From Deltaproteobacteria bacterium (GTDB taxonomy: Bacteria; Bdellovibrionota_G; JALEGL01; JAGRMV01): DNA of 64,000 nt. The notes under the pieces are model-generated. The model was not told where the DNA came from, ran no database searches, and worked only from the letters and a program-made list of their open reading frames with translations. Position numbers and translations under genes: made by a program. The stretch covers positions 8,167 to 72,166 of the forward strand of contig JAGRMV010000001.1 of the NCBI GenBank assembly GCA_020441045.1, in the 5' to 3' direction. Shown here one piece after another: positions 1-35,747 of the stretch (positions are counted from its first letter, which is position 1; every line of letters starts with the position of its first letter).

Positions 1-1101
1 ATTTTAGAACGAAGTTTTGGTCCGGCTTCGCGCATCATCGGCACCATCACGCTGACCCTGGCCTATGTTATTATTGTTTCGTATCAATACCGTGCCGGCG
101 CAGCTATTGTCGAAAAGCTTGCACCTGACCTACCACATGTTTGGGCCGTAATTTTTATGGCAGTGTTTGTCATTCTTTATACTGTCCTTGCAGGCATGTA
201 CTCGGTCGCCTATACCGACGTTGTCAATGGCCTGATCATGATCGTCGGTTTTATCATCGTCGTACCTTTTTTGCTCAGCAAAGCCGGTGGGATCAGTGGG
301 GTCATCCATAGTTTAGAAACATCGCAGCGAAGTTTCACCGGACATTATTCGCTGGGGGAGCTTATTTCCATATTGTTACCCTCTTTGCTTTTGATTTTGG
401 GGGATGCCAATTTGTATGGCCGCTTCTTTTCCGCCAAAAGCCCAGAAGCAGCCAAAAAATCTGCCAAGTACATGTTGGCCTCGGTCCTATTTATGGAATG
501 GATCATTTTATTCACTGCGATCATCGGCTTGGCTTTGGTCAATCAAGGCGTTATTGCTACGCCTTCAAATCCTGGACACATTGTCGTTGATATTGCTTAC
601 AATGTTCTGCCACCTTTTTTGGGTGCATTGATGATGGCAACCATCATGGCGATTGTGGTCTCGACTGCCGACTCTTACTTGCTTGCCCCAGGTTCAGCTA
701 TCGTGCGCGATATGTACCAACGTTTTTTCAAACCCGAAGCCACCGACAAACAGCTGGTTTTGGTCAGTCGCATCACGGTTGCTGCGCTTGGTTTGATTGC
801 ACTTGCTATGGCGTTTATGTCCGATAAATTTTTTAGCATCTCGCTTTTTGCCTACACACTTTATGGCGCAAGTATCACACCCGCCTTGCTTGGCGCACTG
901 TTTTGGAAAAAGGTCAACTACCATGCTGGAACCATATCGATGGTTGTAGGACTGCTCACTGCACTTATATGGAAATTTTTGCAAACCAAAGAAATGTTAC
1001 CACAAGCCATTGTCGATATGGGCATAGATGCTGTTCTACCAGCGGCGCTGCTTTCAACCATCGTTTTGGTGACAATCACATGGTTCAAGCAAAAATCGTA
1101 A
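1..1101 (+). CDS. Sodium:solute symporter family transporter, partial (5' end lies upstream of the window)
   Basis: Reading frame is open from nt 1 in the same frame as track ORF 157..1101. Polytopic hydrophobic protein with SSS-like C-terminal motifs (…LYTVLAGMYSVAYTDVVNGL…, …KAGGISGV…). Confidence 0.55.
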   Translation: MLERSFGPASRIIGTITLTLAYVIIVSYQYRAGAAIVEKLAPDLPHVWAVIFMAVFVILYTVLAGMYSVAYTDVVNGLIMIVGFIIVVPFLLSKAGGISGVIHSLETSQRSFTGHYSLGELISILLPSLLLILGDANLYGRFFSAKSPEAAKKSAKYMLASVLFMEWIILFTAIIGLALVNQGVIATPSNPGHIVVDIAYNVLPPFLGALMMATIMAIVVSTADSYLLAPGSAIVRDMYQRFFKPEATDKQLVLVSRITVAALGLIALAMAFMSDKFFSISLFAYTLYGASITPALLGALFWKKVNYHAGTISMVVGLLTALIWKFLQTKEMLPQAIVDMGIDAVLPAALLSTIVLVTITWFKQKS

Positions 1102-1186
1102 AGCACCTTGAATACGATCCTCGTCAATTAAATCTTTGGATTGGGTTTGGCTTGACTTTAGATGCCAAATCAACAAAAATTTTTAT

Positions 1187-2173
1187 ATGAACCAAGATCG
1201 AAGATCCTTCTTTTATACGCTCTTACATAGCACCTTTGGCATCGCAGCTGGGACCATTTTGGCAAGCCGGAGTTCGTATGCAAAATCCCGGCGCAAAACA
1301 ACGCAGCCCGGACTTGTGCTTTCTACCTGGAAACATGGTGTAGCTGCCAATGCTGCAGCATGGGATATCATCGTAAAAAATGGGGCCGCACTAGACGCTG
1401 TTGAAGCAGGCGCACGTCTGACCGAAGCCAATCCAGAGGGGAGAAGTGTTGGTCTAGGCGGCCGACCCGATCGAGAGGGTATTGTAACATTAGATGCTTG
1501 TATCATGGATCAGCATGGCAATGCCGGGTCAGTTGCATTTTTACAAGACATCAAACATCCGATTTCTGTCGCACGTAAAGTCATGCAAGAGACACCTCAT
1601 GTCATGCTTGTCGGTAAAGGTGCGCAGCAGTTCGCTTTGCAACAAGGTTTTCGCAAAGAAAACCTTTTAACCGAAGCAACCCGAAAAGAATATCAACAAT
1701 GGCGCAAAAAATCCCAATATCAGCCGATCATCAATATCGAAAATCACGATACCATTGGTGTAATTGCCCAAGACCAACATGGCAACCTCTCAGGCGCATG
1801 TACCACCAGCGGACTCGGGTATAAAATGCATGGCCGTGTCGGTGACTCACCGATTATTGGGGCGGGCCTATTTGTCGACAATGAGGTCGGCGCTGCCGCG
1901 GCGACAGGCACTGGTGAAGCTGTAATGAAAACCTGTGGTTCTTTTTTGATTGTCGAACGCATGCGTCAGGGCGCTTCACCTATGCAAGCATGCAAAGAAG
2001 CGGTCTTACGCATTGTCAAACACCAAGACTACAGAGATATGCAAGTGGCATATATTGCGATCAATAAGCAGGGAGAGTATGGCGCGTTTAGTATCCGACC
2101 TGGCTTTCCTTATGCCATCAAGTCACATGATCTAGATACATTACAACCATCTGATGCCTACGTGCAAAAATAA
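1187..2173 (+). CDS. Ntn-hydrolase glycosylasparaginase / isoaspartyl peptidase-L-asparaginase family protein with Tat-like signal (MNQDRRSFF…)
   Basis: Track ORF 1136..2173 begins at a TTG; the first ATG is at 1187 (MNQDRRSFFYTLL…AGTILA). Conserved autoproteolytic/nucleophile region …HDTIGVIAQD…GACTTSGLGYKMHGRVGDSPIIGAG… is typical of plant-type asparaginase / aspartylglucosaminidase. Confidence 0.7.
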   Translation: MNQDRRSFFYTLLHSTFGIAAGTILASRSSYAKSRRKTTQPGLVLSTWKHGVAANAAAWDIIVKNGAALDAVEAGARLTEANPEGRSVGLGGRPDREGIVTLDACIMDQHGNAGSVAFLQDIKHPISVARKVMQETPHVMLVGKGAQQFALQQGFRKENLLTEATRKEYQQWRKKSQYQPIINIENHDTIGVIAQDQHGNLSGACTTSGLGYKMHGRVGDSPIIGAGLFVDNEVGAAAATGTGEAVMKTCGSFLIVERMRQGASPMQACKEAVLRIVKHQDYRDMQVAYIAINKQGEYGAFSIRPGFPYAIKSHDLDTLQPSDAYVQK

Positions 2174-2184
2174 TCTACTGTCAT

Positions 2185-3381
2185 TCATTGCTTTGCTACT
2201 TTTTCTACATCGGTCATCACACGCAAAATATTTTGCTGTGCAAGCTTGGCTAGGTCACGATCACTCCAGCCTCTTTCAATCAGTTCCGCAAACAAATACG
2301 GGTATCTTGAGACATCACGCAAATCATCTGGCGTAATGCCGCTCCCCCAAAAATCTCCACCAAGGCCAATATGATCAACACCTGCTACATCACGGATATG
2401 CTGGATATGGTCTGCAACATGCTTCACCGTAACCGATGGCGGGATATCTAATTGTTTATCCTTTTCGTAAGCTTGTTTAAAAACATCTGATCGTTGCTGC
2501 GGATTTTGGACTTTTTTGAAAAACGTTTTGGCCCACTGCCTAGACTCTTGGGTAAGAAAATAAGAAACAAAATTGACCATCACAATACCGTTATTGTCTT
2601 TTACTTGCGCAAGGATATTGTCAGGCACGTTTCTTGGGTGTGAACTTACTGCTTTGGCATTGGAATGCGAGAAAATAATCGGCGCCTGACTTAAGGCAAG
2701 CACATCTTGCATTACTTTTTCGGAAACATGCGATAGGTCGATCATCATACCCAATCGATTCATTTCTTTGATCACCGTCTTGCCAAAGTCACTTAAGCCA
2801 TCGCTTCTTGCCTTATCTGTTGCAGAATCAGCCCAATCAATAGTTTTGGAGTGGGTTAAGGTCATATAGCGGACACCAAGACCGTAATACATACGAAGTA
2901 ATGGCAATGAATTTTCAATCACATGTCCCCCCTCGATACCGAGCATGGATGCAATCTTACCTTGTCGCATGGCTTGCTTGACTTGCTTGGCGGTTGTACA
3001 AAACACAAATGTGTCACTGTACTGCGCCACCATACGTTTGACCAAATCAATTTGCTCCAACTGCACTTTGGCATACCGACCCTCTTTGATATCGTTAGGA
3101 ACCCATACAGACCAAAATTGCCCTCCTACTTTTCCTCTTCGGAGTTTAGGAATATCGGTTTCGCCACCCGTTTCTATCTCCAAATGGGACCTTTGTAAGT
3201 CAGGCACTTCACCATACTGTTCACGAATATTCCAAGGCAAGTCATTATGCCCATCGATAACAGGATATTTGTGAAGAACTTTATATGCTTTTTCTAAAGC
3301 CCCTTCAGGCTGGATCTTTGCAAACCCTTGTGATGTAAAAAAACAACCTAGCAGCCCTACAATAAACATTCGTCGTATCAT
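2185..3381 (-). CDS. Membrane dipeptidase (peptidase M19, renal-dipeptidase family), probable lipoprotein
   Basis: VIDGHNDLPWNIRE motif and overall M19 architecture; N-terminus MIRRMFIVGLLGC has a lipobox-like LLGC; ATG confirmed at 3381. Confidence 0.75.
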   Translation of the reverse strand: MIRRMFIVGLLGCFFTSQGFAKIQPEGALEKAYKVLHKYPVIDGHNDLPWNIREQYGEVPDLQRSHLEIETGGETDIPKLRRGKVGGQFWSVWVPNDIKEGRYAKVQLEQIDLVKRMVAQYSDTFVFCTTAKQVKQAMRQGKIASMLGIEGGHVIENSLPLLRMYYGLGVRYMTLTHSKTIDWADSATDKARSDGLSDFGKTVIKEMNRLGMMIDLSHVSEKVMQDVLALSQAPIIFSHSNAKAVSSHPRNVPDNILAQVKDNNGIVMVNFVSYFLTQESRQWAKTFFKKVQNPQQRSDVFKQAYEKDKQLDIPPSVTVKHVADHIQHIRDVAGVDHIGLGGDFWGSGITPDDLRDVSRYPYLFAELIERGWSDRDLAKLAQQNILRVMTDVEKVAKQ

Positions 3382-3636
3382 GAAGATATTATAAGAGTAT
3401 CTGCTAAAAATACCAGCGAGGCTTCATAAAAACCAATAACAATATACCGATAGAAGCAAGCTATGGTCGTTTCGTTTTTATGTAAGGCAATTTTATGGCA
3501 ATGAGCGCAAGAGTGGGGATGGTCATGTGAGAGCTTGCATAAGCTGCCCAAATATGACCAGCCCAATTCTTACGCGGTCTTGAATAAAACCTTAACATCT
3601 ATAGACCTTCAAAGACGTCTTTGATAGGCTTACTTC

Positions 3637-4146
3637 ATGATTAAAGCGCCCTTTCATTTGCAGGCTTGGATTGATGATAACCGTGACAAGCTTAAGCCTC
3701 CGGTTGGTAATGCCGAAGTTTTTCCGGGCAGTGACTACATTGTCATGGTAGTCGGCGGACCGAACAATCGCAGCGATTTTCATATCAACCAAGGTCCTGA
3801 GTTTTTCTTTCAACTGGAAGGCCAGATGAATTTACGCGTGATTGAAGGCGGCATTCCCAAAGATATACCGATCGCAGAAGGGGAAGTTTTTGTGCTTCCT
3901 GCCAATGTTCCTCACAGCCCCCAACGTTTTGCGCATAGTGTAGGATTGGTCGTAGAACAAGTTCGTGGACCTGAAGAAAAAGATGGGTTTTTATGGATTT
4001 GTGAAAAATGTCACACGGAACTTTATAAGGAATTTGTTCATGTCACCGATATTGTAGCGCAACTACCCATTGTATTTGACCATTTTTATCAGAACCCCGA
4101 ACATACCACCTGCAAAAACTGTGGTGAAATCGCAACACGATCCTAG
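3637..4146 (+). CDS. 3-hydroxyanthranilate 3,4-dioxygenase (cupin, kynurenine pathway)
   Basis: 169 aa; aligns by eye along its length with eukaryotic HAAO (…AWIDDNRDKLKPPVGN…MVVGGPNNRSDFHINQGPEFFFQLEG…VFVLPANVPHSPQRFAHSVGLVVE…). Confidence 0.8.
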   Translation: MIKAPFHLQAWIDDNRDKLKPPVGNAEVFPGSDYIVMVVGGPNNRSDFHINQGPEFFFQLEGQMNLRVIEGGIPKDIPIAEGEVFVLPANVPHSPQRFAHSVGLVVEQVRGPEEKDGFLWICEKCHTELYKEFVHVTDIVAQLPIVFDHFYQNPEHTTCKNCGEIATRS

Positions 4147-4154
4147 ATAGCGTT

Positions 4155-5168
4155 ATGTTAAAAATCGATATTCATACCCATATTATTCCCAAGATCATTC
4201 CGCAGTGGATGGAACAGTTCGGCTATGGTGGTTTTATTCAACTGGATCATCATAAAAACTGCTGCGCTCGAATGATCCTTGATGATGGCACGTTTTTTCG
4301 TGAAATTGAACACAACTGTTGGGACCCTGAGCAGCGTATCAAAGAATGTAATGAATCCGAAGTTGGTGTACAAGTTCTATCGACGGTGCCGGTGATGTTT
4401 AACTATTGGGCTCGGGCTGAACACACGCATGACACTTCCCGTTTTTTAAACGATCATATCGCCAGTGTCGTTGCGCAGTATCCAAAAAGGTTTGTCGGCC
4501 TGGGAACATTGCCCATGCAGAAAACCAGATTGGCCATCGATGAATTAGAAAGATGTGTACATGATTTACACCTGTCAGGTGTACAAATTGGATCGCATAT
4601 CAACAACATCAACCTGAGTGACCCAACGTTATTTCCGATTTTTGAAAAGGCGCAAGAAATTGGCGCCTGCGTTTTTGTCCACCCCTGGGATATGATGGGA
4701 GAAAAAAGCTTAGATAAATACTGGCTATCATGGCTTGTTGGCATGCCAGCCGAAAGCGCGCGAGCCATTTGCTCGATGATTTTTGGCGGCGTGTTAGAAC
4801 GTTTACCACACTTAAAAATTGCCTTTGCCCATGGCGGTGGCTCTTTTCCGGCAACCTTAGGCCGAATCGAACACGGCTTTCACGTACGACCTGACTTGTG
4901 CGCGGTGGATAACAATTGCAACCCACGCAAATACGTCAAACAAATCTACGTTGATTCCCTGGTACATGACCCCTATGCGCTTGAATTTCTCATCGACACT
5001 TTTGGCGTCGACCGCATTGCCCTGGGCAGTGACTATCCTTTTCCACTGGGCGAACATCGTCCAGGCGAACTCATCCAATCTATCCAATTAACAAAAACCG
5101 ACCGCGCCCAACTCTTACACGGCACCGCCTTAGACTGGCTCGGCAAAAAAATAGAAGATTTTATATAA
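4155..5168 (+). CDS. 2-amino-3-carboxymuconate-6-semialdehyde decarboxylase (ACMSD; amidohydrolase-2 family)
   Basis: 337 aa; N-terminus MLKIDIHTHIIPK…FGYGGFIQL and motifs …LSTVPVMFNYWA…FVGLGTLPMQ…FVHPWDMMG…YWLSWLVGMPAE…AFAHGGGSFP…RPDLCA…DSLVHDP…LGSDYPFPLGE closely track human ACMSD. Confidence 0.85.
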   Translation: MLKIDIHTHIIPKIIPQWMEQFGYGGFIQLDHHKNCCARMILDDGTFFREIEHNCWDPEQRIKECNESEVGVQVLSTVPVMFNYWARAEHTHDTSRFLNDHIASVVAQYPKRFVGLGTLPMQKTRLAIDELERCVHDLHLSGVQIGSHINNINLSDPTLFPIFEKAQEIGACVFVHPWDMMGEKSLDKYWLSWLVGMPAESARAICSMIFGGVLERLPHLKIAFAHGGGSFPATLGRIEHGFHVRPDLCAVDNNCNPRKYVKQIYVDSLVHDPYALEFLIDTFGVDRIALGSDYPFPLGEHRPGELIQSIQLTKTDRAQLLHGTALDWLGKKIEDFI

Positions 5169-5181
5169 TCAAAGTAGAAAA

Positions 5182-5200
5182 CAAGCTGCTACGCAGCTTG
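5182..5200. terminator. Short hairpin (CAAGCTG-5 nt-CAGCTTG) 14 nt after the ACMSD stop, between convergent genes
   Basis: Perfect 7-bp stem seen directly; no strong U-tract on the + side, a U-rich run (UUUUCUACUUUG) on the - side. Confidence 0.3.
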
Positions 5201-5252
5201 TCCTTCCCCCCCTAAGCACACCACCAGCAAAGCCATTAAAACACCCCAGATG

Positions 5253-5311
5253 CAAAATGATAGGAAGTTTTCATTACTTGCGCAGCTGTTTGAAAACTTC
5301 CTATCATTTTG
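5253..5311. repeat. Perfect 20-bp inverted repeat (CAAAATGATAGGAAGTTTTC / GAAAACTTCCTATCATTTTG) with a 19-nt loop, 21 nt downstream of the SDR stop
   Basis: Arms 5253-5272 and 5292-5311 are exact reverse complements. Confidence 0.55.
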
Positions 5312-5331
5312 TTCCCTAAACTACATGTTTT

Positions 5332-6111
5332 CTAAAGACTCTGCGTACGCCCGCCATCAACGACGAGATTTGTTCCATTGATATAACTAGCCGCAGGACT
5401 GGCCAAAAACGCAACCGCATTGGCGATTTCACTAGGCTCGCCTAGCCTTCCAGCTGGAATCATCTTTTTCCACATGACATCAATCTCTTGTACGGTTTTG
5501 GATAGGCGATTGGCACTGGCTTGCTTAAGTGTTGTCAGCCTTTCAGTATCTGTAAACCCTGGCAGAACATTATTGACTGTAATTTGATCCTGACCAAGTT
5601 CACTTGCAAGGGTTTTACTCCAATTGCCCATCGCCCCGCGGATGGTATTAGACACCCCAAGATTTGGAATGGGCGCTTTGACTGACGTAGAAATAATATT
5701 GATGATACGACCATATTTTTCTTTTTGCATCGATGGCACAAGCAATTGCGCTAAGGTTTGACTGGCCAAAACATGTGTTCGAAACGCCGTTTCAAATTCT
5801 TTTATGTCTGCATCGATCAGCGGACCCGCTTTTGGACCTCCTGCATTGTTGACCAAGACATGAAAAGGATGCTGCGCAAGTAGTGGGGTAACCCTATCAA
5901 TAATGTTGTTTTGATCAGAGAGATCAACAACAACAAATGCATGTCGATCTGCATGTGGCAACTGGGTCATCATTGATTTGAGCTTATCTTCACTGCGCGC
6001 CAGCAGTGTAACCTTTGCTCCAAGCTGTGCTAATGCAATGGCAGTCGAACGACCAATGCCACTGGAAGCACCACAAACCAACGCGTATTTATCCGCAAGA
6101 GAAATATTCAT
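5332..6111 (-). CDS. Short-chain dehydrogenase/reductase (SDR) family protein, atypical active site
   Basis: [11 protein letters not shown] cofactor motif, NNAG motif, and the LPGFTDT segment of a classical SDR. No YxxxK is visible where expected (…[24 protein letters not shown]…). Confidence 0.7.
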
Positions 6112-6162
6112 ATCTCTAGATATATCAATATTTACCTAGAGCGCAATATCCCATTGATGGGA

Positions 6163-7518
6163 CTATTTCAATAAGGTCATGGCTTGGGTAATACTGCCTG
6201 CCCCCATCGAACAAATGATATCTCCTGGCTTGCTATTTTGCTTTGCACTTTCCACACCTTTGGCGATTGAAGCAACATACAATGCCTTTGTTTTTCCACG
6301 CGCATTGATTTCTTCGACCAAACGCTCAGATGTAATATGTTCGATAGGTGTTTCACTGGCTTCGTAAACTGGCGTCACATAGACGCGATCGGTATAATCA
6401 AACACCTCAATATGTTTCTGCCAAGTATCACGCAGCCTCGTATATCGATGTGGTTGATACAAGACATGCACAACACCTAGCCCTGCTTTCTTTTTTAACG
6501 CAATCAAGGTTGCCAAAATTTCTGTGGGGTGATGCGCATAATCATCATACATATCAACACCCTCGATTTGACCATAATAATCCATGCGTCGATCAATACC
6601 TTTGAATTTTTTTAATGCCTTAGCAATATTTTTTGGCGCAAGACCAACGCGAAGACCGACAGCGAATGCACCTAAGGCATTGAGTACATTGTGCTTACCA
6701 AGCATAGGAAGCTCGACAGTGGCCAAACAATCTTTGGCATTCCATACCTCAAATACCATGTATTTTTCTTCGATACGGATGTTATCAGCTCGTATCATGG
6801 CTTTCATATGAGTACCGACGGTTAAAACTGGTTTATTGATTTCTTCCAAAATCTTGTGCACTTCAGGATCATCAATACAGAGAATGGTCAACCCATCAAA
6901 TGGTACACTAGAAGCAAATTGGGCAAAGGCAGATTTCAGATTGTCAAAACTACCATAATGATTCAAATGCTCTTGATCAATATTGGTAATCACCGCAACC
7001 TCGGGATAAAGATGTAAAAAAGAGCCATCGCTTTCATCGCTTTCTGCGACAAACCAGTTCGATTTCCCCACATATGCATTAGATTGTTTACTTTTTAAGC
7101 GTCCCCCCAAAACAAACGTTGGATCCAAATCATTTTCGAGCATCATATGGGCAACCATGGAAGTTGTGGTGGTCTTGCCATGTGACCCAGCAACAACAAG
7201 TGCTCTTTTTTTACGCATGAGTTCCGCCATCATTTCTGCTCTACGCAAAATTGGAATATGCTTATCCTTGGCTGCTATAAGTTCCACATTTTCATGCGTT
7301 ACGGCCGAAGAGTAGACCACCAGGTTGGCGCCATCGATATGAGATGCTTCGTGCCCCTGAAAAATCTTCGCCCCTTTTTGTGTTAATTTATCCGTCTCAC
7401 TATTTTGGCGGAGATCACTACCTTGCACTTCATAGCCTAAATCCAACAATACATCTGCAATTGCCGACATGCCAATACCTGCAATACCAACAAAATGAAT
7501 CTTTTGCTTATCCATCAC
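6163..7518 (-). CDS. murC: UDP-N-acetylmuramate--L-alanine ligase
   Basis: 451 aa; HFVGIAGIGMSAIA N-terminus, Mur ligase GSHGKTTTTSM P-loop, dcw context. Confidence 0.9.
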   Translation of the reverse strand: MMDKQKIHFVGIAGIGMSAIADVLLDLGYEVQGSDLRQNSETDKLTQKGAKIFQGHEASHIDGANLVVYSSAVTHENVELIAAKDKHIPILRRAEMMAELMRKKRALVVAGSHGKTTTTSMVAHMMLENDLDPTFVLGGRLKSKQSNAYVGKSNWFVAESDESDGSFLHLYPEVAVITNIDQEHLNHYGSFDNLKSAFAQFASSVPFDGLTILCIDDPEVHKILEEINKPVLTVGTHMKAMIRADNIRIEEKYMVFEVWNAKDCLATVELPMLGKHNVLNALGAFAVGLRVGLAPKNIAKALKKFKGIDRRMDYYGQIEGVDMYDDYAHHPTEILATLIALKKKAGLGVVHVLYQPHRYTRLRDTWQKHIEVFDYTDRVYVTPVYEASETPIEHITSERLVEEINARGKTKALYVASIAKGVESAKQNSKPGDIICSMGAGSITQAMTLLK

Positions 7519-7622
7519 TGTATTTCATTTATCTGATTTGCGCACTAGCGCAAAGATTTAGGTTACATATTATACTTGAATATCAAACAAGAGATGTCTA
7601 TACATAAAATACTTCTCAAGCC

Positions 7623-8078
7623 ATGATGTCAGAACATTCTCTACATATCATACAAGCATCAACGAAGCAGACTTACCAAGCATGTTTAGGTATTCGTATG
7701 CAAGTATTTGTCAAAGAACAACAAGTCCCGTTAGAGCTAGAGGTCGATACCTTTGAACAAGAGGCGACCCATTTTTTGGGACAACTCGATGGGCGCGCAG
7801 TGGCAACAGGAAGATACCGTGTCTATGGTGCCAATCTTAAATTTGAACGCATTGCCACACTCCCAGCGTATCGGGGCAAAGGTATTGGCAAAAAATTGAT
7901 GCATCATATGCAAGCTTGTGCACAAAAAAATCATCCTACGCTCTTACCCATGATGTATGCACAAGCAGATGCCATTACATTTTATCAACAACTTGGATGG
8001 ATATGCGAAGGTCCTGAATTTCTCGAAGCCAATATCAAACACAAAAAAATGATCTTCCACCACCAAGACCATCAATAA
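7623..8078 (+). CDS. GNAT family N-acetyltransferase
   Basis: 151 aa; acetyl-CoA binding region …RGKGIGKKLM… Antisense to the dcw operon, between murG/hypothetical and murC. Confidence 0.6.
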   Translation: MMSEHSLHIIQASTKQTYQACLGIRMQVFVKEQQVPLELEVDTFEQEATHFLGQLDGRAVATGRYRVYGANLKFERIATLPAYRGKGIGKKLMHHMQACAQKNHPTLLPMMYAQADAITFYQQLGWICEGPEFLEANIKHKKMIFHHQDHQ

Positions 8079-8680
8079 TACTCAAGCGCATACCAATAAT
8101 CTTTACCTAGCTGTAGACCTCTTATATAGGCAAATTGCTCATCATCTTCAGATATATGATCTGTCACCAAATAACACCGATCACTGTCAAAATTGCGACT
8201 CCACACCATCATCCTTCGCCATTTCATTTGATCAACATATTGTTTTACTGCTTTTGGATCAGCAAACACAAGCTTTTGCCAAGGCATGACGGTTGTTCCA
8301 TTTGCACGCAGGTAAGAGCATCGCACCGCATAGACATCCCTTTCCACAATTTCATCACTACGCATCTCTGGAAGGAGATCATCAGAGCATTTCATTGTCT
8401 TTTGCACAATTTCGGTATGCTGGAGCGTAAAGAATTTTCTTTGCATTTTTTTACGTAGGGGGGTCAGAAGAACGACAATGCCAACAACGAAGATTATAAC
8501 AATCGTCGAGGCAAAAAAACGATCCCAATTCAACATCACGGCTACTACTATAGAAATCAATATAACAAAAAAAGAAACAAAGCTTATGACGGTCAACAAA
8601 AACCACCGCTGATGCACAAAAGCAATATTCTTTTCTCTATGTAAAGTAGAAAATCCTGCATTGAGTTCGAGCAAGCTCAT
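8072..8680 (-). CDS. Hypothetical membrane protein (two N-terminal TM helices plus soluble C-terminal domain), translationally coupled to murG
   Basis: ATG at 8680 overlaps the murG TGA stop (ATGA). 202 aa, hydrophobic segments at about 25-75. Confidence 0.5.
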   Translation of the reverse strand: MSLLELNAGFSTLHREKNIAFVHQRWFLLTVISFVSFFVILISIVVAVMLNWDRFFASTIVIIFVVGIVVLLTPLRKKMQRKFFTLQHTEIVQKTMKCSDDLLPEMRSDEIVERDVYAVRCSYLRANGTTVMPWQKLVFADPKAVKQYVDQMKWRRMMVWSRNFDSDRCYLVTDHISEDDEQFAYIRGLQLGKDYWYALEYY

Positions 8681-9762
8681 AATTGCAAAAAATCCTCCAT
8701 GATTTCTTGCACGGCATTTTCTTTGCGTAACGTCTGCAATTGTTCTCTATACTGTGAAGGATCAATATTGAGCATAGATTGTATTTTTTCGAAAAGCAGC
8801 GCCGGGGTAAGATCTTTTTCTTCGATCATGATTGCACCTTGGGTTGCTACCAAAACCTTGGCATTTTCCACCTGATGATTGTCCGCCGCAATGGATAATG
8901 GAATAAGTATCGACGCAATAGCCACCGCTGCAAACTCAAGCACAGACGAACCTGATCTAGCAATGATCAAATGGGTTCGACCATAGATCGCTTCAACATC
9001 ATCAAAAAACGGTTGGACGGTGCTGGTCACATTGATCGACTGATAGCGCTCAGCAATATGTGCATAATCTCTACTGCCGGTTTGGTGAATGACCGTGATT
9101 TTATCTTTAAGTTCATTGATGTTCTGTTCTAGCATCGTGCAAAACACATCATTGACTTGCATAGACCCTTGTGAACCGCCCAATATGGTAACTGTTTTCA
9201 TCGCAGTTTTCTCACTGGGCGGTTGCACTGCAAAAATACTCTTGCGAATCAAATGGCCATAATTGCGAACTTTCTTAGAGGGAAAATAACGGTTTGCCCA
9301 CGCAAATACCACATACACCCGCTTGACAAACTTCGCCAAAATCTTATTTGACAGACCTGGAGCGGCATTGGGTTCAATGATTGCGCAAGGAATACCGCGC
9401 AAACTGGCAAGTAGCATGATTGGTCCCGAAGAATATCCGCCAATCCCAAAAACACGTTCAGGCTTATATTGATCTAAAACTTTTTTTGATTTCATAAATG
9501 CATTGGGTAATTTCAACAACCCTGAAAGTCGTTTGCCAATCGATCCGGATTTGACTCCTTGCATATCTAACAATTCGACATCAAACCCACGCGCTGGAAT
9601 CCACTGCTCTTCAAATTTTCCTTTTACGCCAACAAACACACATCGATATTCAGGATGTTTTTCTCTGATTTCAGACGCCAAAACAAACGCCGGAATAACA
9701 TGCCCTCCGGTACCACCAGCAGCAAATAAAATGGTCTTTTGATCCGCACTCATTGCACCCAA
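8677..9762 (-). CDS. murG: UDP-N-acetylglucosamine--N-acetylmuramyl-(pentapeptide) pyrophosphoryl-undecaprenol N-acetylglucosamine transferase
   Basis: 361 aa; LFAAGGTGGHVIPA N-terminus, GT28 architecture, dcw context. Confidence 0.9.
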   Translation of the reverse strand: MGAMSADQKTILFAAGGTGGHVIPAFVLASEIREKHPEYRCVFVGVKGKFEEQWIPARGFDVELLDMQGVKSGSIGKRLSGLLKLPNAFMKSKKVLDQYKPERVFGIGGYSSGPIMLLASLRGIPCAIIEPNAAPGLSNKILAKFVKRVYVVFAWANRYFPSKKVRNYGHLIRKSIFAVQPPSEKTAMKTVTILGGSQGSMQVNDVFCTMLEQNINELKDKITVIHQTGSRDYAHIAERYQSINVTSTVQPFFDDVEAIYGRTHLIIARSGSSVLEFAAVAIASILIPLSIAADNHQVENAKVLVATQGAIMIEEKDLTPALLFEKIQSMLNIDPSQYREQLQTLRKENAVQEIMEDFLQL

Positions 9763-9804
9763 AAACTACCCCCGGCTTGCTTGCAAGTCAAGAAGCCACC
9801 TTTT

Positions 9805-10935
9805 TTACAGAACCCGCGAAATTTTGGCTTTCTGATGTGAGATCGAGCTTGATAGCGATAACAGAAGGCCCAGAGAAAACATTGTTGAAATCAATGAAGA
9901 ACCTCCATAGCTTACCAAAGGCAATGTTAAGCCTTTGGTCGGCAGAAGCCCCATCACCACGCCCATATTAAAAAGTCCTTGCAGACTGATCAATACTGTA
10001 ATGCCCATCGCTAAAATCGAAGCATATTGATCTTGAATCCGTATCGAAAGACGTATGCCTTGTACCATGACGATAAAAAATAATATGACCACGGCGGCGC
10101 AGCCAATAAAGCCCAGCTCTTCGCCAATCACTGAAAAAATAAAATCTGTATGTGCTTCCGGCAGATATAAAAGTTTTTGCGTACCATCACCTAACCCTTG
10201 CCCTGCCAAACCTCCTCGCTCAAAAGCGATCAATGACTGAATCATTTGGAAGCCATCGCCTTGTGGATCAGCCCATGGGTTGAGAAAGCTAAAAAACCGT
10301 TTTCGTCTGTATTCTGTCGAAAAAATCAAATAGGCCATCGTAATCAGCCCACTGCCAACCAGTGCCAACAAATGCTCCAGCTTTGCCCCAGCTACAAACA
10401 CCATCAAAATAAGAACACTACCGATGGTCACTGTCGTACCAAAATCAGGCTGTTTTAAAATCAATAGCAATACAAAACCTTGCATGCATAAAAGCGGCAG
10501 TAGGCCTTGTTTAAAGGATTGAATTTTTGGCCCCATCCGCTCAATATAACCGGCAGTAAATAAAATAAACCATGGCTTGATCATCTCACTGGGCTGAAAT
10601 CGAAAACCGCCTAAGCTCAGCCAGCGCGTGGCATGTTTTGCTTCCACCCCCAGAGACGTCACCAGTACGGTCAGTAGCAACAAAATACATAAACCAAATA
10701 GTGGTAAGCTGATTTTTTTAAGCACGTGCATGGGAATAAGCAGTGCCACAAACATGGCAATAAAACCAACGCCCAACATCACCAAGTGCCTCTTGAGATA
10801 GTGCGCATGATTAGAAAAATGCTCTGCAGCCATCAGGCTACTCGAGCTATACACCATCACCGTACCAATACATATGAGCAGAAGAATGGATCCGAGCAAA
10901 ATAGGATCTACATATCGAAGTCTAGGCGATTTCAT
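9805..10935 (-). CDS. ftsW: Peptidoglycan glycosyltransferase / lipid II flippase FtsW (SEDS family)
   Basis: 376 aa polytopic protein with SEDS features; ATGA overlap with murD stop. Confidence 0.85.
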   Translation of the reverse strand: MKSPRLRYVDPILLGSILLLICIGTVMVYSSSSLMAAEHFSNHAHYLKRHLVMLGVGFIAMFVALLIPMHVLKKISLPLFGLCILLLLTVLVTSLGVEAKHATRWLSLGGFRFQPSEMIKPWFILFTAGYIERMGPKIQSFKQGLLPLLCMQGFVLLLILKQPDFGTTVTIGSVLILMVFVAGAKLEHLLALVGSGLITMAYLIFSTEYRRKRFFSFLNPWADPQGDGFQMIQSLIAFERGGLAGQGLGDGTQKLLYLPEAHTDFIFSVIGEELGFIGCAAVVILFFIVMVQGIRLSIRIQDQYASILAMGITVLISLQGLFNMGVVMGLLPTKGLTLPLVSYGGSSLISTMFSLGLLLSLSSSISHQKAKISRVL

Positions 10936-12236
10936 ACGGGAACATCTGCAATACGTTTTTTAAAATGCCGGCCGCGTTCTTCGATATTTTGATATTGATC
11001 AAAACTCGTAAAGCCAGGTGAGAACAGTACCACATCACCACTTTTAAGCACAGTAAGAACTTGTGCAAAGGCCTGATCAAGGTTTTTGACCTGTACTAAA
11101 TTAGGATGGGAAAGCACTTTACCTAAGGTCGGTGCCATCTCGCCAAAAACAGTGATGCTGACAATATTCTCATATTGCTGTAGTCTTTGCGCAAAATCTT
11201 GTAAATCAAGACCTTTACCTTTGCCACCCATCATCAAATGCACAGGCGCTTGAAATTGAGTAAGTGCAAACAGCGTAGCATCCGGTGTTGTACTTTTGGA
11301 ATCGTTGACAAAAACATTATCACCTTTAACAATTTTTTCTTGGCGATGTTCCAGTTGGACAAAATGTGCCAACACTTCTTTCACCTTCTGGATATCGATT
11401 TTATAAATACATGCCAACAGAAACAAAGCCAAAACCTGCTGCTTTGGATGACCATGAAAATCTAATGTGATTTCTCGCCCGAACAGATAAATGCTCTCAT
11501 CTTTGACATAAGCGTCAGCGCGCTGATCTGCCTGTGTGGAAAATGTTAAAATTTTGGCCTCACACCCTAATGGAATAAGCTCAGGCTGGTCTGCCGACAC
11601 AATGGCGTAATCGTCTTTGCTCTGGTTTTGAAAGATGCGCTGTTTCGCATAAAGATAATGATCCATACTGCCATGTCGATCGAGATGATTTGCATACAGA
11701 TTTAAAAACACTGCCACCTTCGGGTGAAAACTTGTACTTTGTTGCAATTGGAAACTAGAAACCTCTACTACAGCATGATCACAGCCCTTGCCGAGCGCTT
11801 GGACCAATGCTGTTCCGTAATTACCACCTAGAAAAACATTTTTGTAGCGCATACAAAGCAAGTCGAAACTCATTTTCGCCATCGTAGATTTTCCAAGTGA
11901 ACCAGTAATCGCGAGCACAGGGCATTGCAATCGATCAAAAGAAAAATCAATTTCTGTTTGAACAGTGATCCCCCATGCGTGGGCTTGCGCAATGATTGGA
12001 TGCTCTGCTGGCACACCAGGGCTGATCAGCAACGTCCCAATATTTTTCTTCAAACAAGCGACATCATCAGCAAACACCTGCACATGTTGCCCCGGTTTTT
12101 TATAGGTTGTAACCAAAGTTTGAATCGCTTGCAGGTCACCACCATCAAAAATATCGATATCAGCATCTTGCAGGTATTGTAAAAGACCAAGGCCTGTGCG
12201 CAGGCCAAAGCCAAGAATACCGTATTTTTTTGACAT
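10932..12236 (-). CDS. murD: UDP-N-acetylmuramoylalanine--D-glutamate ligase
   Basis: 434 aa Mur ligase (…ITGSLGKSTMA…), position between mraY and ftsW. Confidence 0.9.
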   Translation of the reverse strand: MSKKYGILGFGLRTGLGLLQYLQDADIDIFDGGDLQAIQTLVTTYKKPGQHVQVFADDVACLKKNIGTLLISPGVPAEHPIIAQAHAWGITVQTEIDFSFDRLQCPVLAITGSLGKSTMAKMSFDLLCMRYKNVFLGGNYGTALVQALGKGCDHAVVEVSSFQLQQSTSFHPKVAVFLNLYANHLDRHGSMDHYLYAKQRIFQNQSKDDYAIVSADQPELIPLGCEAKILTFSTQADQRADAYVKDESIYLFGREITLDFHGHPKQQVLALFLLACIYKIDIQKVKEVLAHFVQLEHRQEKIVKGDNVFVNDSKSTTPDATLFALTQFQAPVHLMMGGKGKGLDLQDFAQRLQQYENIVSITVFGEMAPTLGKVLSHPNLVQVKNLDQAFAQVLTVLKSGDVVLFSPGFTSFDQYQNIEERGRHFKKRIADVPV

Positions 12237-12237
12237 G

Positions 12238-13308
12238 CTAGCGCAATTTTAATGTTGCCAAGGACAAAATGGCAAGGATTATCGAAATAATCCAAAAACG
12301 CACGATAACTTTCGGCTCAGCCCAGCCTTTAAGCTCGAAATGATGGTGAATCGGTGCCATACGGAAAACGCGTTTGCCCGTCAAACGAAAGGATAACACT
12401 TGAATGATAACACTGCTGGCCTCAAGGACAAAAACCCCTCCGACCAAGATCAAAAGCAACTCCTGTTTGACCATGATAGCTATGACCCCCAATGTACCGC
12501 CTAGCGACAAAGACCCAATATCGCCCATAAATACCTGCGCTGGGTAAGTGTTGTACCAAAGAAAACTTAAGGCGCTGCCAAAAAGTGCGCCGCACAATAT
12601 ACAAAGCTCACTGGCACCTTGAATATAGGGAATTTGCAAATATTCAGAAAAATTCACATTCCCTGCCAGATACGCAAAAAGCAAATAGGTTATTGACGAA
12701 ACAATAATGGGTCCGATCGCCAAACCATCCAAGCCATCGGTCAAATTCACCGCATTAGAACTGGCGACCAAGACCAAGGCAACAAAAGGTACAAACAACA
12801 AACCCAACGGGATCACCAGATTCTTGAAAAAGGGTACTACCAGTGAGGTATCAAAACCAAGATACATAAATAAAAATCCAATCAGAAAAGAAAACCCAAC
12901 TTGTAAGCTGAGTTTACCCAAAGCCGAAAGTCCGCCTTTCTTTCGTATTTTTGATAGATCATCAATCAAACCAATCAAAGCAAAACCAACGGCTGTTAAC
13001 AAAGCAATCCAAGTGATATAAAGATCCAAACGAGCCCAAAGCAAAAAGGATACCGTCATCGTAATCAAAATCAAAATTCCACCCATCGTTGGCGTGCCTG
13101 ATTTGGCCAAATGTGAATCTGGCACGTCTTCTCGCACATTGTTGGCCTGGCCTTGTTTTTTCTTTAAAAACCGAATGATCGGACGACCAAATACCAACCC
13201 AATAAACAGCGCCGTCAATATCGCCATAAATACCCGAAAACTGGTGTACTTAAAAACCCGAAAATAACTAAGATCTACATGTAACGGATATAATAAATGG
13301 TATAACAA
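12238..13308 (-). CDS. mraY: Phospho-N-acetylmuramoyl-pentapeptide transferase
   Basis: 356 aa polytopic protein; …NAVNLTDGLDGLA… and …HHHFE… motifs. Confidence 0.9.
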   Translation of the reverse strand: MLYHLLYPLHVDLSYFRVFKYTSFRVFMAILTALFIGLVFGRPIIRFLKKKQGQANNVREDVPDSHLAKSGTPTMGGILILITMTVSFLLWARLDLYITWIALLTAVGFALIGLIDDLSKIRKKGGLSALGKLSLQVGFSFLIGFLFMYLGFDTSLVVPFFKNLVIPLGLLFVPFVALVLVASSNAVNLTDGLDGLAIGPIIVSSITYLLFAYLAGNVNFSEYLQIPYIQGASELCILCGALFGSALSFLWYNTYPAQVFMGDIGSLSLGGTLGVIAIMVKQELLLILVGGVFVLEASSVIIQVLSFRLTGKRVFRMAPIHHHFELKGWAEPKVIVRFWIISIILAILSLATLKLR

Positions 13309-13332
13309 TGTGTGCTCCTATAAAATAATGCC

Positions 13333-14688
13333 TTATATCCATGGTGCTATGATTTCTTCCAATCGCATTCCTCTGGATCCTTTTACATAGAGTATATCGC
13401 CTGATTGCAATTGTGTATGTATCTTTTCATACGCACTTTTTCGATCATCCAAAAGATGAATTTGCGATTCTTGCAGTCCACCAAGCAGAGCTCCCTGATA
13501 ATAATCTTTGGCAAATTGACCGAGCAAAAATACCTGGTCAATGCCTAAATCAAATAATTTTCTGGCAAGGTCCATATGCATTTTCGAACTTTGCTCGCCA
13601 AGTTCAAGCATATCACCTAACAGCACAACTTTTCGGCCTGGCAAGGTCGAAACCATGGTAAGACCTGCCATGGTTGAGGTAGGGTTGGCATTATAACAAT
13701 CGACAATGATGCGAATATCCTCATCTGTTTTATATTCCTGCATCCGCATATCCAATGGTTTAATCATGGCAATACGATCTTGGATCTCATTGATCGTTTT
13801 ACCACAAGCCATCGCCACACCGAGCGCGCAGGCTAAATTATTTCGATTATGTTGCCCTCCCAGATGAAAAGCTGTTTCTATCTGCTGCTGCCCATACTGC
13901 ACTTTGATCGTTTGATCGGACACAAGCTCAACAAAAACATCGGCCTGCGTTTGAGCAGATACCGTCACGATATCAACAGTTAATTTTTCTTGTAGGGTCG
14001 ATAAATACGGATCATCGATATTGATCACAGCAATGCCATCTTGGGGAAGACATGCAAATAATTCAGACTTGGCCTTGAGCACACCTTCTCGATTTTTCAG
14101 ATGCATCAAATGTGAATCCCCGATCACCGTAAGCACACCAATATCAGGCATCGCGTATTGGCAATAACTTTCTAAATCACCGAATTGATTGATACCCATT
14201 TCAATCACCGCAATATGATGGGCTGGACGTAACATCAATAGCGACAGGGGTATACCCAAATGATTGTTCCATGTCCCAGGCGTCGAAAATGCTTCTTCTC
14301 CTAATAGTGTATGGAGCATTTCTTTGGTTGTCGTTTTACCATTAGACCCGCTGACCCCGACCACAATGCCCGACCAAGCTTGGCGGTATTGTTTGGCCAG
14401 CTCATGTAAACTTTGTAATGTGTGGGCTACGATGATTTGCCGAGGCAAATGCATATCATGATCTACAACCACTGCAGCTGCCCCTTTATCTAACGCCCCT
14501 TGCACAAAGTCATGTCCATCTCTGGCAGCCTTGATCGCAAAGAAAAGATCGCCTGGTTGTAGCACCCTGGAATCCAAACAAACACCTGTAATGGCACCTA
14601 TCTGACTATCCAATACAGCTTCTGGAAGCCACTGCTGTAGCAACGCACTTTCGATACGGCAGTTCACCCTTAAATCATCTTTGTGCAT
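13333..14688 (-). CDS. murF: UDP-N-acetylmuramoyl-tripeptide--D-alanyl-D-alanine ligase
   Basis: Track ORF extends to 14781. The ATG at 14688 (MHKDDLRVN…AITGVCLDSRVLQPGDLFFA) gives a canonical MurF N-terminus and leaves an 8-nt gap after the murE stop. GSNGKTTTKE P-loop. Confidence 0.85.
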   Translation of the reverse strand: MHKDDLRVNCRIESALLQQWLPEAVLDSQIGAITGVCLDSRVLQPGDLFFAIKAARDGHDFVQGALDKGAAAVVVDHDMHLPRQIIVAHTLQSLHELAKQYRQAWSGIVVGVSGSNGKTTTKEMLHTLLGEEAFSTPGTWNNHLGIPLSLLMLRPAHHIAVIEMGINQFGDLESYCQYAMPDIGVLTVIGDSHLMHLKNREGVLKAKSELFACLPQDGIAVINIDDPYLSTLQEKLTVDIVTVSAQTQADVFVELVSDQTIKVQYGQQQIETAFHLGGQHNRNNLACALGVAMACGKTINEIQDRIAMIKPLDMRMQEYKTDEDIRIIVDCYNANPTSTMAGLTMVSTLPGRKVVLLGDMLELGEQSSKMHMDLARKLFDLGIDQVFLLGQFAKDYYQGALLGGLQESQIHLLDDRKSAYEKIHTQLQSGDILYVKGSRGMRLEEIIAPWI

Positions 14689-16156
14689 ATTGCTCCCAAT
14701 ACGTTTGGACAACTTCTTGATCATTGAATGGATACCGCACTCCATGAATCTCTTGATAAGTTTCGTGTCCCTTACCTGCAATCAAAACAATATCACCGGG
14801 CTGCGCCATTTGCAGAGATTTTTCAATCGCTGCTCTGCGATCGACAATGATTTCGACCTTCGTGGCATACTCTTTTTCAGTACGAATCCCTTGCGCCATT
14901 TCATCAATAATACTGGCCGGATCTTCCGTACGTGGATTGTCCGTGGTCATAATCAATCGATCGGCATATTCATAGACGGCTTTTGCCATTTTTGGACGAC
15001 GAGTTGCGTCTCGGTCACCCCCACAACCAAACACAGTAACAATACGGTTTTGACGAAATGGTGTCAGCGTCTGCAAAACATTACGAAGCGCATCTTCGGT
15101 ATAGGCAAAATCAACAATAACCGTAAAAGGCGCATCAATATCAACTTTCTGCAAGCGTCCTGGCACGGCAATACCTTTTTCAATACAGGCTTTCATGGTC
15201 GCAACATCAACCCCTTGTACTTTACAGGCAAGCATTGCCGCCATTGTGTTCATGACATTGTATTGTCCAAATGTTGGCATGAATATTTCAACCTTTTCGC
15301 CCATCATCGACAGTGTCATCTGCATACCGTTATCTGTGGTTACAAGCGAAGTTGGGTAGATATCAGCTCCGGGGTGCATGCTATACGTGCAGGTATTTTC
15401 GGCAATACCTTGAGAAACCCAATTTTTACCAACTTCATCATCGACATTGATCACAGCTATTTTATTTTTTTTAGGCGAAGTCGCCAAATGTTTGGTAAAA
15501 AGTTTGGCCTTGGCCTGCGCGTACTCCTGCATGGTTTTATGAAAGTCTAAATGCTCGTGGGATAGATTTGTATAAACACAGACATCAAAAGCAATATCAT
15601 CGATACGACCAAGCTCTATACCATGTGAAGAACATTCCATGACGACCGTTTCGACTTGATCTAGCTGCATCTGATAAAAATACTTTTGCAACATTTCATA
15701 CATTGGGGTGGTAAGCTTGGCATCCATGGTTGTGCCCGGCCAACGGTACTGCGTCGTTCCCACGTAGCCAACCTTGCAAGAAGCATATTGTAAGATCGCT
15801 TCAATAAAATAACTGGTACTGGTCTTGCCATTGGTACCCGTTACCCCAATCATATTCATCTTTGAAGTTGGATGATCATACAAAGCCTGGCATATTTTTT
15901 TTAGAACCTCTTGGCTACGTGGGGCAAGCAGTTGAGGGATGGGCTTGTCGATTTTTTCGGGTACGACAATTGCACTCACACCGCGCCCAATGACTTCATC
16001 AATGAAATGCAGGCCATCAAAATGCTCCCCTTGTTTTGGGAAAAAAAGTGCCCCAGCTGCCACCTGTCGAGAATCTGACTCTACCCAAGATATATCAACA
16101 TCAGATTTGTCCACAGAAGGAAAATCAAGAATTTGTGCTAGTTTTGACAGCAGCAT
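14675..16156 (-). CDS. murE: UDP-N-acetylmuramoyl-L-alanyl-D-glutamate--2,6-diaminopimelate ligase
   Basis: 493 aa; GVTGTNGKTSTSY P-loop; DNPR motif (TTDNPRTEDP) characteristic of MurE. Confidence 0.9.
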   Translation of the reverse strand: MLLSKLAQILDFPSVDKSDVDISWVESDSRQVAAGALFFPKQGEHFDGLHFIDEVIGRGVSAIVVPEKIDKPIPQLLAPRSQEVLKKICQALYDHPTSKMNMIGVTGTNGKTSTSYFIEAILQYASCKVGYVGTTQYRWPGTTMDAKLTTPMYEMLQKYFYQMQLDQVETVVMECSSHGIELGRIDDIAFDVCVYTNLSHEHLDFHKTMQEYAQAKAKLFTKHLATSPKKNKIAVINVDDEVGKNWVSQGIAENTCTYSMHPGADIYPTSLVTTDNGMQMTLSMMGEKVEIFMPTFGQYNVMNTMAAMLACKVQGVDVATMKACIEKGIAVPGRLQKVDIDAPFTVIVDFAYTEDALRNVLQTLTPFRQNRIVTVFGCGGDRDATRRPKMAKAVYEYADRLIMTTDNPRTEDPASIIDEMAQGIRTEKEYATKVEIIVDRRAAIEKSLQMAQPGDIVLIAGKGHETYQEIHGVRYPFNDQEVVQTYWEQYAQR

Positions 16157-16565
16157 CCCTTGTTTTTATCTTAAGTTGCAAAATAGAGCCACTGCTTCTT
16201 TATGACTTCGTTGATATTTTCATTATTCAACGCGTTAGAAATCAAGCAACCTTACTTTCGTATTCAGCAAATGATATTCATACCTTAACCAAATCTACAG
16301 AAGAATTGCCTGATGGTTCATTGAGAAAATATTTTTTATTCATGTATTAAATCTATCACTCAATCATTTGTAAGTATTGATTGGCTATAGAATATCTAAC
16401 TTTATTTTACTGATGATACGGAATGTAATCTTATTGTTATACAATCTACCTGATACAGTGATGCTCATTGTACTAAACCTATATAGCTCTCATAAAATAA
16501 AGGTAACTTCCCGCTGTTACACATGCCTTTAGCCTACGAGCTTTTGAGTGCGTAATATTATTAAC

Positions 16566-34543: not shown

Positions 34544-34551
34544 CCAACCTT

Positions 34552-35556: not shown

Positions 35557-35747
35557 GGTTACCCTTTCTGATCTACAATATGGTTTCACTTTACCTGATC
35601 AACCTTACCCGAGAATGAATCGAACATTACAAATTGTTAACTTTTTGATAGAAATAAATGACATTATGATTGAAATTACACCCAAAGAGCATTGTATTGC
35701 GTACATTGAGGTACTGTTAAGTTGACAAAGCCAATTGAGGATAACCC

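Follow-up and report, generated by a model that had tools for sequence, protein, structure and literature searches.

The nba genes of Pseudomonas fluorescens KU-7 and a tryptophan-catabolic cluster of Burkholderia were reportedly described by Muraki (2003) and by Colabroy and Begley (2005), and the kynurenine clusters of bacteria, on which Kurnasov (2003) and Lima (2009) are said to have worked, were reportedly treated as a route of NAD (nicotinamide adenine dinucleotide) biosynthesis ending at 3-hydroxyanthranilate 3,4-dioxygenase (HAAO). The stretch analysed here, referred to as the window, comprises 64,000 nucleotides of a Deltaproteobacteria bacterium of the Bdellovibrionota (assembly GCA_020441045.1, contig JAGRMV010000001.1, positions 8,167 to 72,166 of the forward strand) and carries a gene for HAAO followed by one for ACMSD, the decarboxylase of 2-amino-3-carboxymuconate semialdehyde (ACMS). 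With a probability of roughly 0.85, a figure based on sequence comparison and gene context, this pair would be the core of a bacterial module for the breakdown of 3-hydroxyanthranilate (3-HAA) in a Bdellovibrionota genome.

The combination of ACMSD with a 2-aminomuconate-6-semialdehyde dehydrogenase (AMSDH) and a deaminase is established as the signature of the catabolic branch (PMC10143591; preprint 10.64898/2026.06.05.730449). According to the latter preprint, of 2026, 2-aminomuconate is processed by a deaminase in fungi and by a reductase (ASPDH/AMR) in metazoa, earlier knowledge having been incomplete, and deamination to 2-oxohex-3-enedioate was shown for RidA homologues of Burkholderia and Aspergillus. 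The steps after 2-aminomuconate are said there to remain to be found, and their chemistry is likened to that of the 2,4-dienoyl-CoA reductases.

The HAAO (3637..4146) and ACMSD (4155..5168) genes are adjacent, intact and co-oriented on the forward strand, and they are flanked by an M19 membrane dipeptidase (2185..3381, reverse strand) and a non-canonical short-chain dehydrogenase/reductase (SDR; 5332..6111, reverse strand), in agreement with an earlier note made from the letters of this DNA, which had placed the pair between a dipeptidase and a non-canonical SDR. HAAO is a protein of 169 amino acids with a single cupin domain and, as in the bacterial enzymes, a rubredoxin-like Cys4 site at the C-terminus. 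It scores 186 bits against Pfam PF06052 (cut-off 25) and lies above the cut-offs of two NCBIfam equivalog models, NF009763 (235.9, cut-off 220) and the 'anthran_nbaC' model TIGR03037 (225.5, cut-off 145.95). Residues were aligned to the reference positions of the Cupriavidus enzyme (Fe(II) ligands His51, Glu57 and His95; substrate-binding Arg47, Arg99 and Glu110), and the iron ligands (H49, E55, H93) and the substrate-binding residues (R45, R97, E107) are all kept. The Cys4 site consists of C122, C125, C159 and C162, replaced by V, T, G and a gap in the bovine and human enzymes. With its one domain the protein is not of the two-cupin animal form (about 286 aa, with a second C-terminal cupin and no Cys4), and its identity is 42-43% to each of the Cupriavidus, bovine and human enzymes, an equal distance from all three. 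The enzyme of Cupriavidus metallidurans (PDB 1yfu) shares with it the single cupin, the His-Glu-His iron ligands, the Arg47/Arg99/Glu110 set and the rubredoxin-like Cys4 site, but at only 43% identity it is no nearer than the N-terminal domains of the bovine and human proteins. Judged by these residues, 3637..4146 is a genuine and intact HAAO of tryptophan breakdown, with predicted catalytic activity.

ACMSD (337 aa) starts at an ATG at 4155, 8 nt past the HAAO stop (4146), and across this gap the two genes are presumably co-transcribed. Among solved structures it matches human ACMSD (2wm1) over the whole length at 422.6 bits (E = 1e-125) and the P. fluorescens ACMSD at 219.9 bits, other Amidohydro_2 decarboxylases scoring far lower (LigW 88.7 bits, IDCase 78 bits). 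Family models gave the generic Pfam PF04909 (Amidohydro_2) only, with no NCBIfam model returned. Identity in the alignment is 54% to the human enzyme and 39% to Pseudomonas NbaD. Relative to the P. fluorescens reference (zinc ligands His9, His11, His177 and Asp294; catalytic His228; substrate Arg51 and Arg239), the zinc ligands H7, H9, H176 and D293, the catalytic base H226 and the substrate arginines R49 and R237 are all kept. For neither protein, then, is the best match a generic cupin or amidohydrolase, nor are metal ligands lost, and the identities given to both in the earlier note hold; 4155..5168 is, on the same kind of comparison, a genuine and intact ACMSD, its catalysis being predicted. 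Like the animal enzymes (PDB 2wm1, 4ofc, 4igm), to which it aligns along the full length without large gaps, it has identical zinc ligands, catalytic histidine and both substrate arginines, and it belongs to the same clade, apart from NbaD. It differs from them in being part of a bacterial operon beside a bacterial-type HAAO, and the bacterial members of this human-type clade are nearer to each other (63-85%) than to the human enzyme.

The set of genes around the pair is best seen in relatives. The two closest relatives recovered, L082 (ACMSD 74% identical) and L084 (81%), have genes for RidA, an aldehyde dehydrogenase (ALDH), HAAO, ACMSD and the SDR, the last on the far side of ACMSD, likewise located between murB and murC. 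From this synteny ALDH and RidA genes were predicted beyond the left edge of the window, and a sister assembly of the same species (L086), whose DNA is 98.6-99.2% identical to window 1..16227, confirmed them: past a sodium:solute symporter follow a 476-aa ALDH and then a RidA gene, just beyond the edge. Of solved structures, this ALDH is nearest to the 2-aminomuconate-6-semialdehyde dehydrogenases (437.6 bits), the AMSDH of P. fluorescens being the first; generic ALDHs reach about 371 bits. In the orientation of the window the module reads RidA(-), ALDH(-), symporter(+), Asparaginase_2(+), M19 dipeptidase(-), HAAO(+), ACMSD(+), SDR(-). The set of HAAO, ACMSD, AMSDH and RidA is thus present, as the pair in the window with ALDH and RidA outside it in L086, and also in L082 and L084. 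Because the AMSDH-type ALDH and the RidA-type deaminase genes adjoin in the sister assembly, the module is read as catabolic, which was one of the readings offered in the earlier note and the right one.

The proposed pathway would run as follows. HAAO (Fe2+, O2) would open the ring of 3-HAA to give ACMS, from which ACMSD (Zn) would remove CO2 before ACMS cyclises to quinolinate, giving 2-aminomuconate semialdehyde; this second step would commit the carbon to breakdown, away from NAD synthesis. The AMSDH-type ALDH would oxidise the semialdehyde to 2-aminomuconate, from which the RidA-family deaminase would free ammonia to give 2-oxohex-3-enedioate, and the convergent SDR would be an NAD(P)H-dependent enzyme carrying the pathway on towards 2-oxoadipate. 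The direction of flux is inferred here, and in a rival reading the pair would serve de novo NAD synthesis, with ACMS cyclising spontaneously to quinolinate and ACMSD trimming the excess as in animal liver. PMC10143591, citing Kurnasov et al. 2003, places HAAO at the end of the bacterial route from tryptophan to quinolinate, and in many of the loci surveyed below it is clustered with kynureninase, KMO and TDO. Still, ACMSD is translationally adjacent to HAAO, the linked AMSDH-type ALDH and RidA-type deaminase make sense for breakdown only, and nadC was not found among the 41 window open reading frames (ORFs) scanned against Pfam (most of those of at least 150 aa; 6 gave no match and 4 long ORFs were left out). 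Among these ORFs HAAO alone was found of the tryptophan-to-NAD set (TDO, formamidase, KMO, kynureninase, HAAO, NadC). We consider an NAD-synthetic function of the pair unlikely and, since the two roles can coexist, secondary at most.

Some observations weigh against a functional catabolic module. Genes for TDO, KMO, kynureninase and formamidase were not seen among the window ORFs scanned (the earlier note had rightly called the first three absent from this stretch) or beside the pair in the close relatives, and because no such gene is near the pair the supply of 3-HAA is unexplained; TDO, KMO and kynureninase could be encoded elsewhere, or 3-HAA could be taken up via the embedded symporter. 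ALDH and RidA lie outside the window and are seen for this species only in L086, an indel-rich assembly in which RidA appears frameshifted and may not be intact. In the window itself no convincing promoter was found, promoter-like sites being no commoner than in shuffled sequence, and a recognisable Shine-Dalgarno sequence is found at neither HAAO nor ACMSD.

The catabolic module was compared with the neighbourhoods of human-type ACMSD in 82 non-redundant loci, whose ORFs were grouped by similarity and the groups named by curated models. HAAO, lying upstream of ACMSD at a median gap of -10 nt, is present in 61 loci, kynureninase in 57 (TIGR01814, 473 bits), the SDR in 53, a KMO-like flavoprotein and ALDH in 50 each, RidA in 37, TDO in 21 (TIGR03036, above cut-off) and a cyclase-family putative formamidase in 20. 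A typical order, all on one strand, is that of Colwellia: SDR-ALDH-RidA-HAAO-ACMSD-formamidase-kynureninase-KMO-TDO. Judged by gene content and order, the window module is a trimmed and rearranged version of a multi-phylum cluster SDR-ALDH-RidA-HAAO-ACMSD-kynureninase-KMO, sometimes with TDO and formamidase. What remains in the window lineage is the half downstream of 3-hydroxyanthranilate; the first half was not found adjacent, and TDO, KMO and kynureninase have been lost or relocated.

The SDR is a conserved member of kynurenine-catabolic clusters with human-type ACMSD in at least 4 phyla. Where ACMSD is flanked by 6 kb or more on each side, the SDR is as frequent as HAAO (46/54 loci each). 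The association was also found in the reverse direction, starting from SDR homologues chosen by similarity alone: two of three Flavobacteriia loci are a one-strand operon kynureninase-KMO-RidA-ALDH-SDR-ACMSD. The third (L087 8001..8783, Confluentibacter lentus) has the same type of SDR at the site syntenic with that of the other two (L088, L089) and no kynurenine-pathway genes, which points either to a function of the SDR beyond the cluster or to a recent loss of the cluster there.

This protein keeps the Rossmann cofactor motifs of the family (G14-ASSGIG and N88-NAGG), and the catalytic tetrad is replaced. At the columns of the classical N-S-Y-K tetrad it has H113, S141, S154 and R158, and the same H-S-S-R set is found in all 56 orthologues examined (45-71% identity). 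Columns were assigned with the sequence of E. coli FabG (N110, S138, Y151, K155), whose catalytic positions came out of the alignment as expected, in agreement with four canonical SDRs from the loci. Ordinary SDRs in the surveyed loci retain N-S-Y-K. Conservation of R39, which follows strand beta-2, in 73 of 74 aligned sequences suggests NADP(H) as the cofactor. The best solved relatives are the uncharacterised structural-genomics entries 5idx, 5vps and 5va8 (148 bits over the full length), in which, as in the window protein, S-N-G-x-R replaces the classical Y-x-x-x-K, but their identity to the window SDR is low. Database names of the homologues are all generic.

A more distant version with L-S-S-R at these columns occurs in Myxococcota and other Bdellovibrionota. 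In eleven loci from these groups (L038, L045, L048, L049, L057, L063, L065, L070, L071, L072 and L080) the L-S-S-R gene lies downstream of KMO. The L-S-S-R loci also have a gene of the FAA_hydrolase family no more than 9 kb from ACMSD (where the distance was measured, about 3 kb upstream) and may represent a third variant of the lower pathway.

From the gene context, we put it at somewhat better than even that the H-S-S-R protein acts in the breakdown of tryptophan or 3-HAA. The more specific proposal, that it reduces 2-oxohex-3-enedioate to 2-oxoadipate, or 2-aminomuconate directly, is drawn from the same context and is tentative, its being wrong appearing to us the likelier outcome. If reduction of 2-aminomuconate were direct, the SDR may be a non-homologous counterpart of the metazoan ASPDH/AMR; such a reaction fits the loci of Cytophagales, because there the SDR and ALDH are present without RidA nearby. 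No paper was found that names a gene for the step reducing 2-oxohex-3-enedioate; 'Oxalocrotonate reductase' was met only as a nominal step on a pathway figure.

As a control, 80 loci around NbaD-type ACMSD were taken. They contain HAAO (68 loci), RidA (52), LysR (46), ALDH (39), an FAA_hydrolase-family protein (30) and a DmpG-type aldolase (21), and the H-S-S-R SDR was found in none of the 80. Restricted to well-flanked loci, the non-canonical SDR is present in 46 of 55 human-type ACMSD loci versus 0 of 28 NbaD-type loci (Fisher p 1e-14) and the DmpG-type aldolase in 0 of 55 versus 9 of 28 (Fisher p 2e-5), p-values which overstate the case as the test treats loci as independent though they are not. 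The patterns of SDR and aldolase are complementary between the two types of loci.

This comparison bears on the possibility that the pair belongs to an nba/amn-type xenobiotic module (2-nitrobenzoate, 2-aminophenol) which feeds the classical meta-cleavage lower pathway. The first four reaction types are the same as those of nbaC, nbaD, nbaE and nbaF, and HAAO passes the TIGR03037 'anthran_nbaC' cut-off, so that the earlier note, which had offered an nbaC/nbaD-like module, was right as far as the chemistry is concerned. ACMSD, however, does not belong to the NbaD clade (39% identity), and the genes of the lower pathway are not the same: nitroreductase/mutase, the FAA_hydrolase-type decarboxylase/hydratase, the DmpG-type aldolase and LysR, all of them recurrent neighbours in the 80 NbaD-type loci, were not found in the window, L082 or L084, nor were the last three in L086. 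The peptidases and the symporter nearby moreover point to the catabolism of amino acids or peptides. A xenobiotic module of this kind is very improbable here, and the breakdown of 3-HAA by a cluster of the human-type ACMSD group is preferred.

The pair had been called eukaryote-type in the earlier note, ACMSD uncommon in bacteria, and acquisition from a eukaryotic host was considered. The first of these statements stands in part, ACMSD being nearer to the human enzyme (54% over the full length) than to NbaD of Pseudomonas (39%), but HAAO is of the bacterial Cys4 form, which is missing from the animal enzymes, and is equidistant from both groups. The second does not agree with the distribution observed. 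A wide protein search with the window ACMSD gave at least 8000 candidates, the best 120 of which are all 63-85% identical, and a scan of species-representative genomes gave human-type ACMSD in no fewer than 575 stretches. Carriers belong to Bacteroidota (Pontibacter, Saprospiraceae, Solitalea), Gammaproteobacteria (Colwellia, Kangiella, Alcanivoracaceae), Myxococcota, Bdellovibrionota, Calditrichota and Obscuribacterales.

In the same search the top match (P0001, 493 aa, from an ENA contig of 819,588 bp) was considered as a HAAO-ACMSD fusion and rejected; it is an ACMSD homologue with a tandem internal duplication of ~160 residues, which may be an assembly artefact or real.

A recent transfer of the pair from a eukaryotic host or prey, for which the closeness of ACMSD to the human protein would speak, is also hardly credible in view of the relationships. 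Bacterial homologues are nearer (63-85%), number thousands and come from at least 6 phyla. In a neighbour-joining tree rooted on NbaD, with 28 bacterial sequences compared and human as the one eukaryotic sequence, NbaD is the outgroup to a clade of the window and human enzymes, and the bacterial sequences form a clade without human ACMSD in 71 of 100 bootstraps. All the others of the 28 resemble the human enzyme more than the window copy does (54%), up to 64% in one from Cyclobacteriaceae. The tree excludes a recent transfer from a eukaryote into the window lineage, the deep history being not settled with one eukaryotic sequence. Ternes and Schonknecht found HAAO in separate eukaryotic and bacterial branches, and their published trees lend no support to eukaryote-to-bacterium transfer for the pathway and reject it (PMC4217691).

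Composition is the other point which could favour a foreign origin. The HAAO-ACMSD block is mildly GC-rich (guanine plus cytosine 0.43-0.475, window gene mean 0.411 +/- 0.029), and the codon usage of ACMSD is atypical (z = 5.7, second of 46 genes, with a null matched for length and amino-acid composition). HAAO, however, has a codon usage typical of the window (z = -0.2), and two core genes, ftsI and priA, come close to ACMSD in their deviation (z about 4). Taken as a whole, composition points clearly neither way. Because the bias of ACMSD favours C-ending two-fold codons, is absent in HAAO and is matched by core genes, it is not read as a sign of foreign origin. The insert between murB and murC is, in addition, common to relatives whose ACMSD is only 74-81% identical, for which reason we regard it as old. 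On this evidence we take the pair to be an ordinary bacterial module of many phyla, not derived from a eukaryote.

The symporter (SSF family, 1..1101, forward strand) is cut at its 5' end by the left edge of the window, the frame being open from base 1; Pfam SSF matches with 110 bits starting at profile position 128. The gene is whole in L086 (428 aa), and in L084 an orthologue of 473 aa lies between ALDH and HAAO. The Asparaginase_2 / isoaspartyl-peptidase family protein (1136..2173, forward strand; PF01112 233.7 bits) has its likely start at an ATG at 1187, in agreement with the 328 aa called in L086, and has no counterpart at this place in L082 or L084. The N-terminus of the protein (MNQDRRSFF...) looks like a twin-arginine (Tat) export signal. 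The M19 membrane dipeptidase (PF01244 390.5 bits), divergent from HAAO, occurs among all surveyed loci in the window and L086 only, and both peptidase-type genes are treated as species-specific passengers in the module. Peptidase genes recur beside kynurenine clusters of unrelated phyla, with DPP-IV in Pontibacter (L004 1124..3361), M20 in Colwellia (L014 4594..5943) and M1 in Flavobacteriia (L088, L089, about 12240..15585) in addition to M19 in the window, a recurrence that hints at some connection with the breakdown of peptides.

Between ACMSD and the SDR two hairpins, spotted by eye and confirmed by folding, are probable terminators. The first (5181..5201, 9-bp stem) begins 13 nt after the ACMSD stop. 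The second (5252..5312) has a 22-bp uninterrupted stem beside the stop codon of the SDR in the convergent gap, where it is probably bidirectional, and its arms are found nowhere else in the window. The whole gap (5169..5331) folds at -47 kcal/mol (z = -7.2 versus shuffled sequences). A terminator consensus scan of the window performed no better than on shuffled sequence, and searches of it for tRNAs and Rfam families gave no hits.

Elsewhere the window is ordinary bacterial chromosome, with most of the dcw cluster (murC to rsmH), priA, a BatA-D/MoxR operon, a two-component pair and efflux systems. The nearest relatives of the window MraY, after the identical protein P0242 from a metagenome-assembled genome (MAG), are Bdellovibrionales (80%), and the window SDR is 100% identical to P0122, labelled 'MAG: Bdellovibrionota bacterium'. 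The dcw cluster, which is normally contiguous, is split here between murB and murC by a variable insert of 6-10 kb with the 3-HAA module. The remaining content of the insert differs: L082 has an RND pump and a histidine kinase there, L084 a DUF285 protein and the window the peptidases. Within the cluster, the murF and murE ORFs (13333..14781 and 14675..16156, reverse strand) overlap by 107 nt, the start of murF being probably downstream of the listed TTG.

A 202-aa ORF without Pfam match (8072..8680, reverse strand; window 8063..8678), between a GNAT gene and murG, is not present in L086, although that assembly is 99% identical; an indel at strain level is suggested. A 1467-aa ORF (23830..28233, forward strand) has by far the most deviant codon usage of the window (z = 10.7, length-matched null). 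The operon of the 'aerotolerance' type is complete (BatA-D / MoxR / DUF58 / DUF4381; 28442..35589, reverse strand). A LigB-family extradiol ring-cleavage dioxygenase (40979..41770, reverse strand; PF02900 81.6 bits) is far from HAAO and adjoins an AhpC peroxiredoxin.

Compared with the known systems, the pair itself adds little, being another bacterial case of a known catabolic junction. NbaC, NbaD, NbaE and NbaF of P. fluorescens KU-7 and the tryptophan-catabolic cluster of Burkholderia share its chemistry, with HAAO, ACMSD, AMSDH and a RidA-family 2-aminomuconate deaminase, but NbaD is only 39% identical to the window ACMSD and of a different clade, and loci of its type carry LysR, FAA_hydrolase-type enzymes and a DmpG-type aldolase where the clade of the window carries the SDR instead. 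The kynurenine clusters of Bacteroidota and Xanthomonadales (Ternes & Schonknecht 2014, PMC4217691) contain the same gene families, and the loci surveyed here extend that picture; they were treated as an NAD route ending at HAAO, whereas the window lineage has the catabolic half after 3-HAA only. The ascomycete cluster for 3-HAA catabolism (PMC7842363) likewise combines HAAO, ACMSD, AMSDH and a RidA-family deaminase, and has an SDR as well, but it is eukaryotic and has introns. The main value added is the SDR, which is co-inherited with human-type ACMSD and missing from the clusters of the aldolase route. Its subfamily with a rebuilt active site is a concrete candidate gene for the reduction towards 2-oxoadipate in organisms that use the deaminase. 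If this is true, bacteria would have two mutually exclusive routes after 2-aminomuconate, one with the SDR and human-type ACMSD and the other with the meta-cleavage aldolase and ACMSD of the NbaD type.

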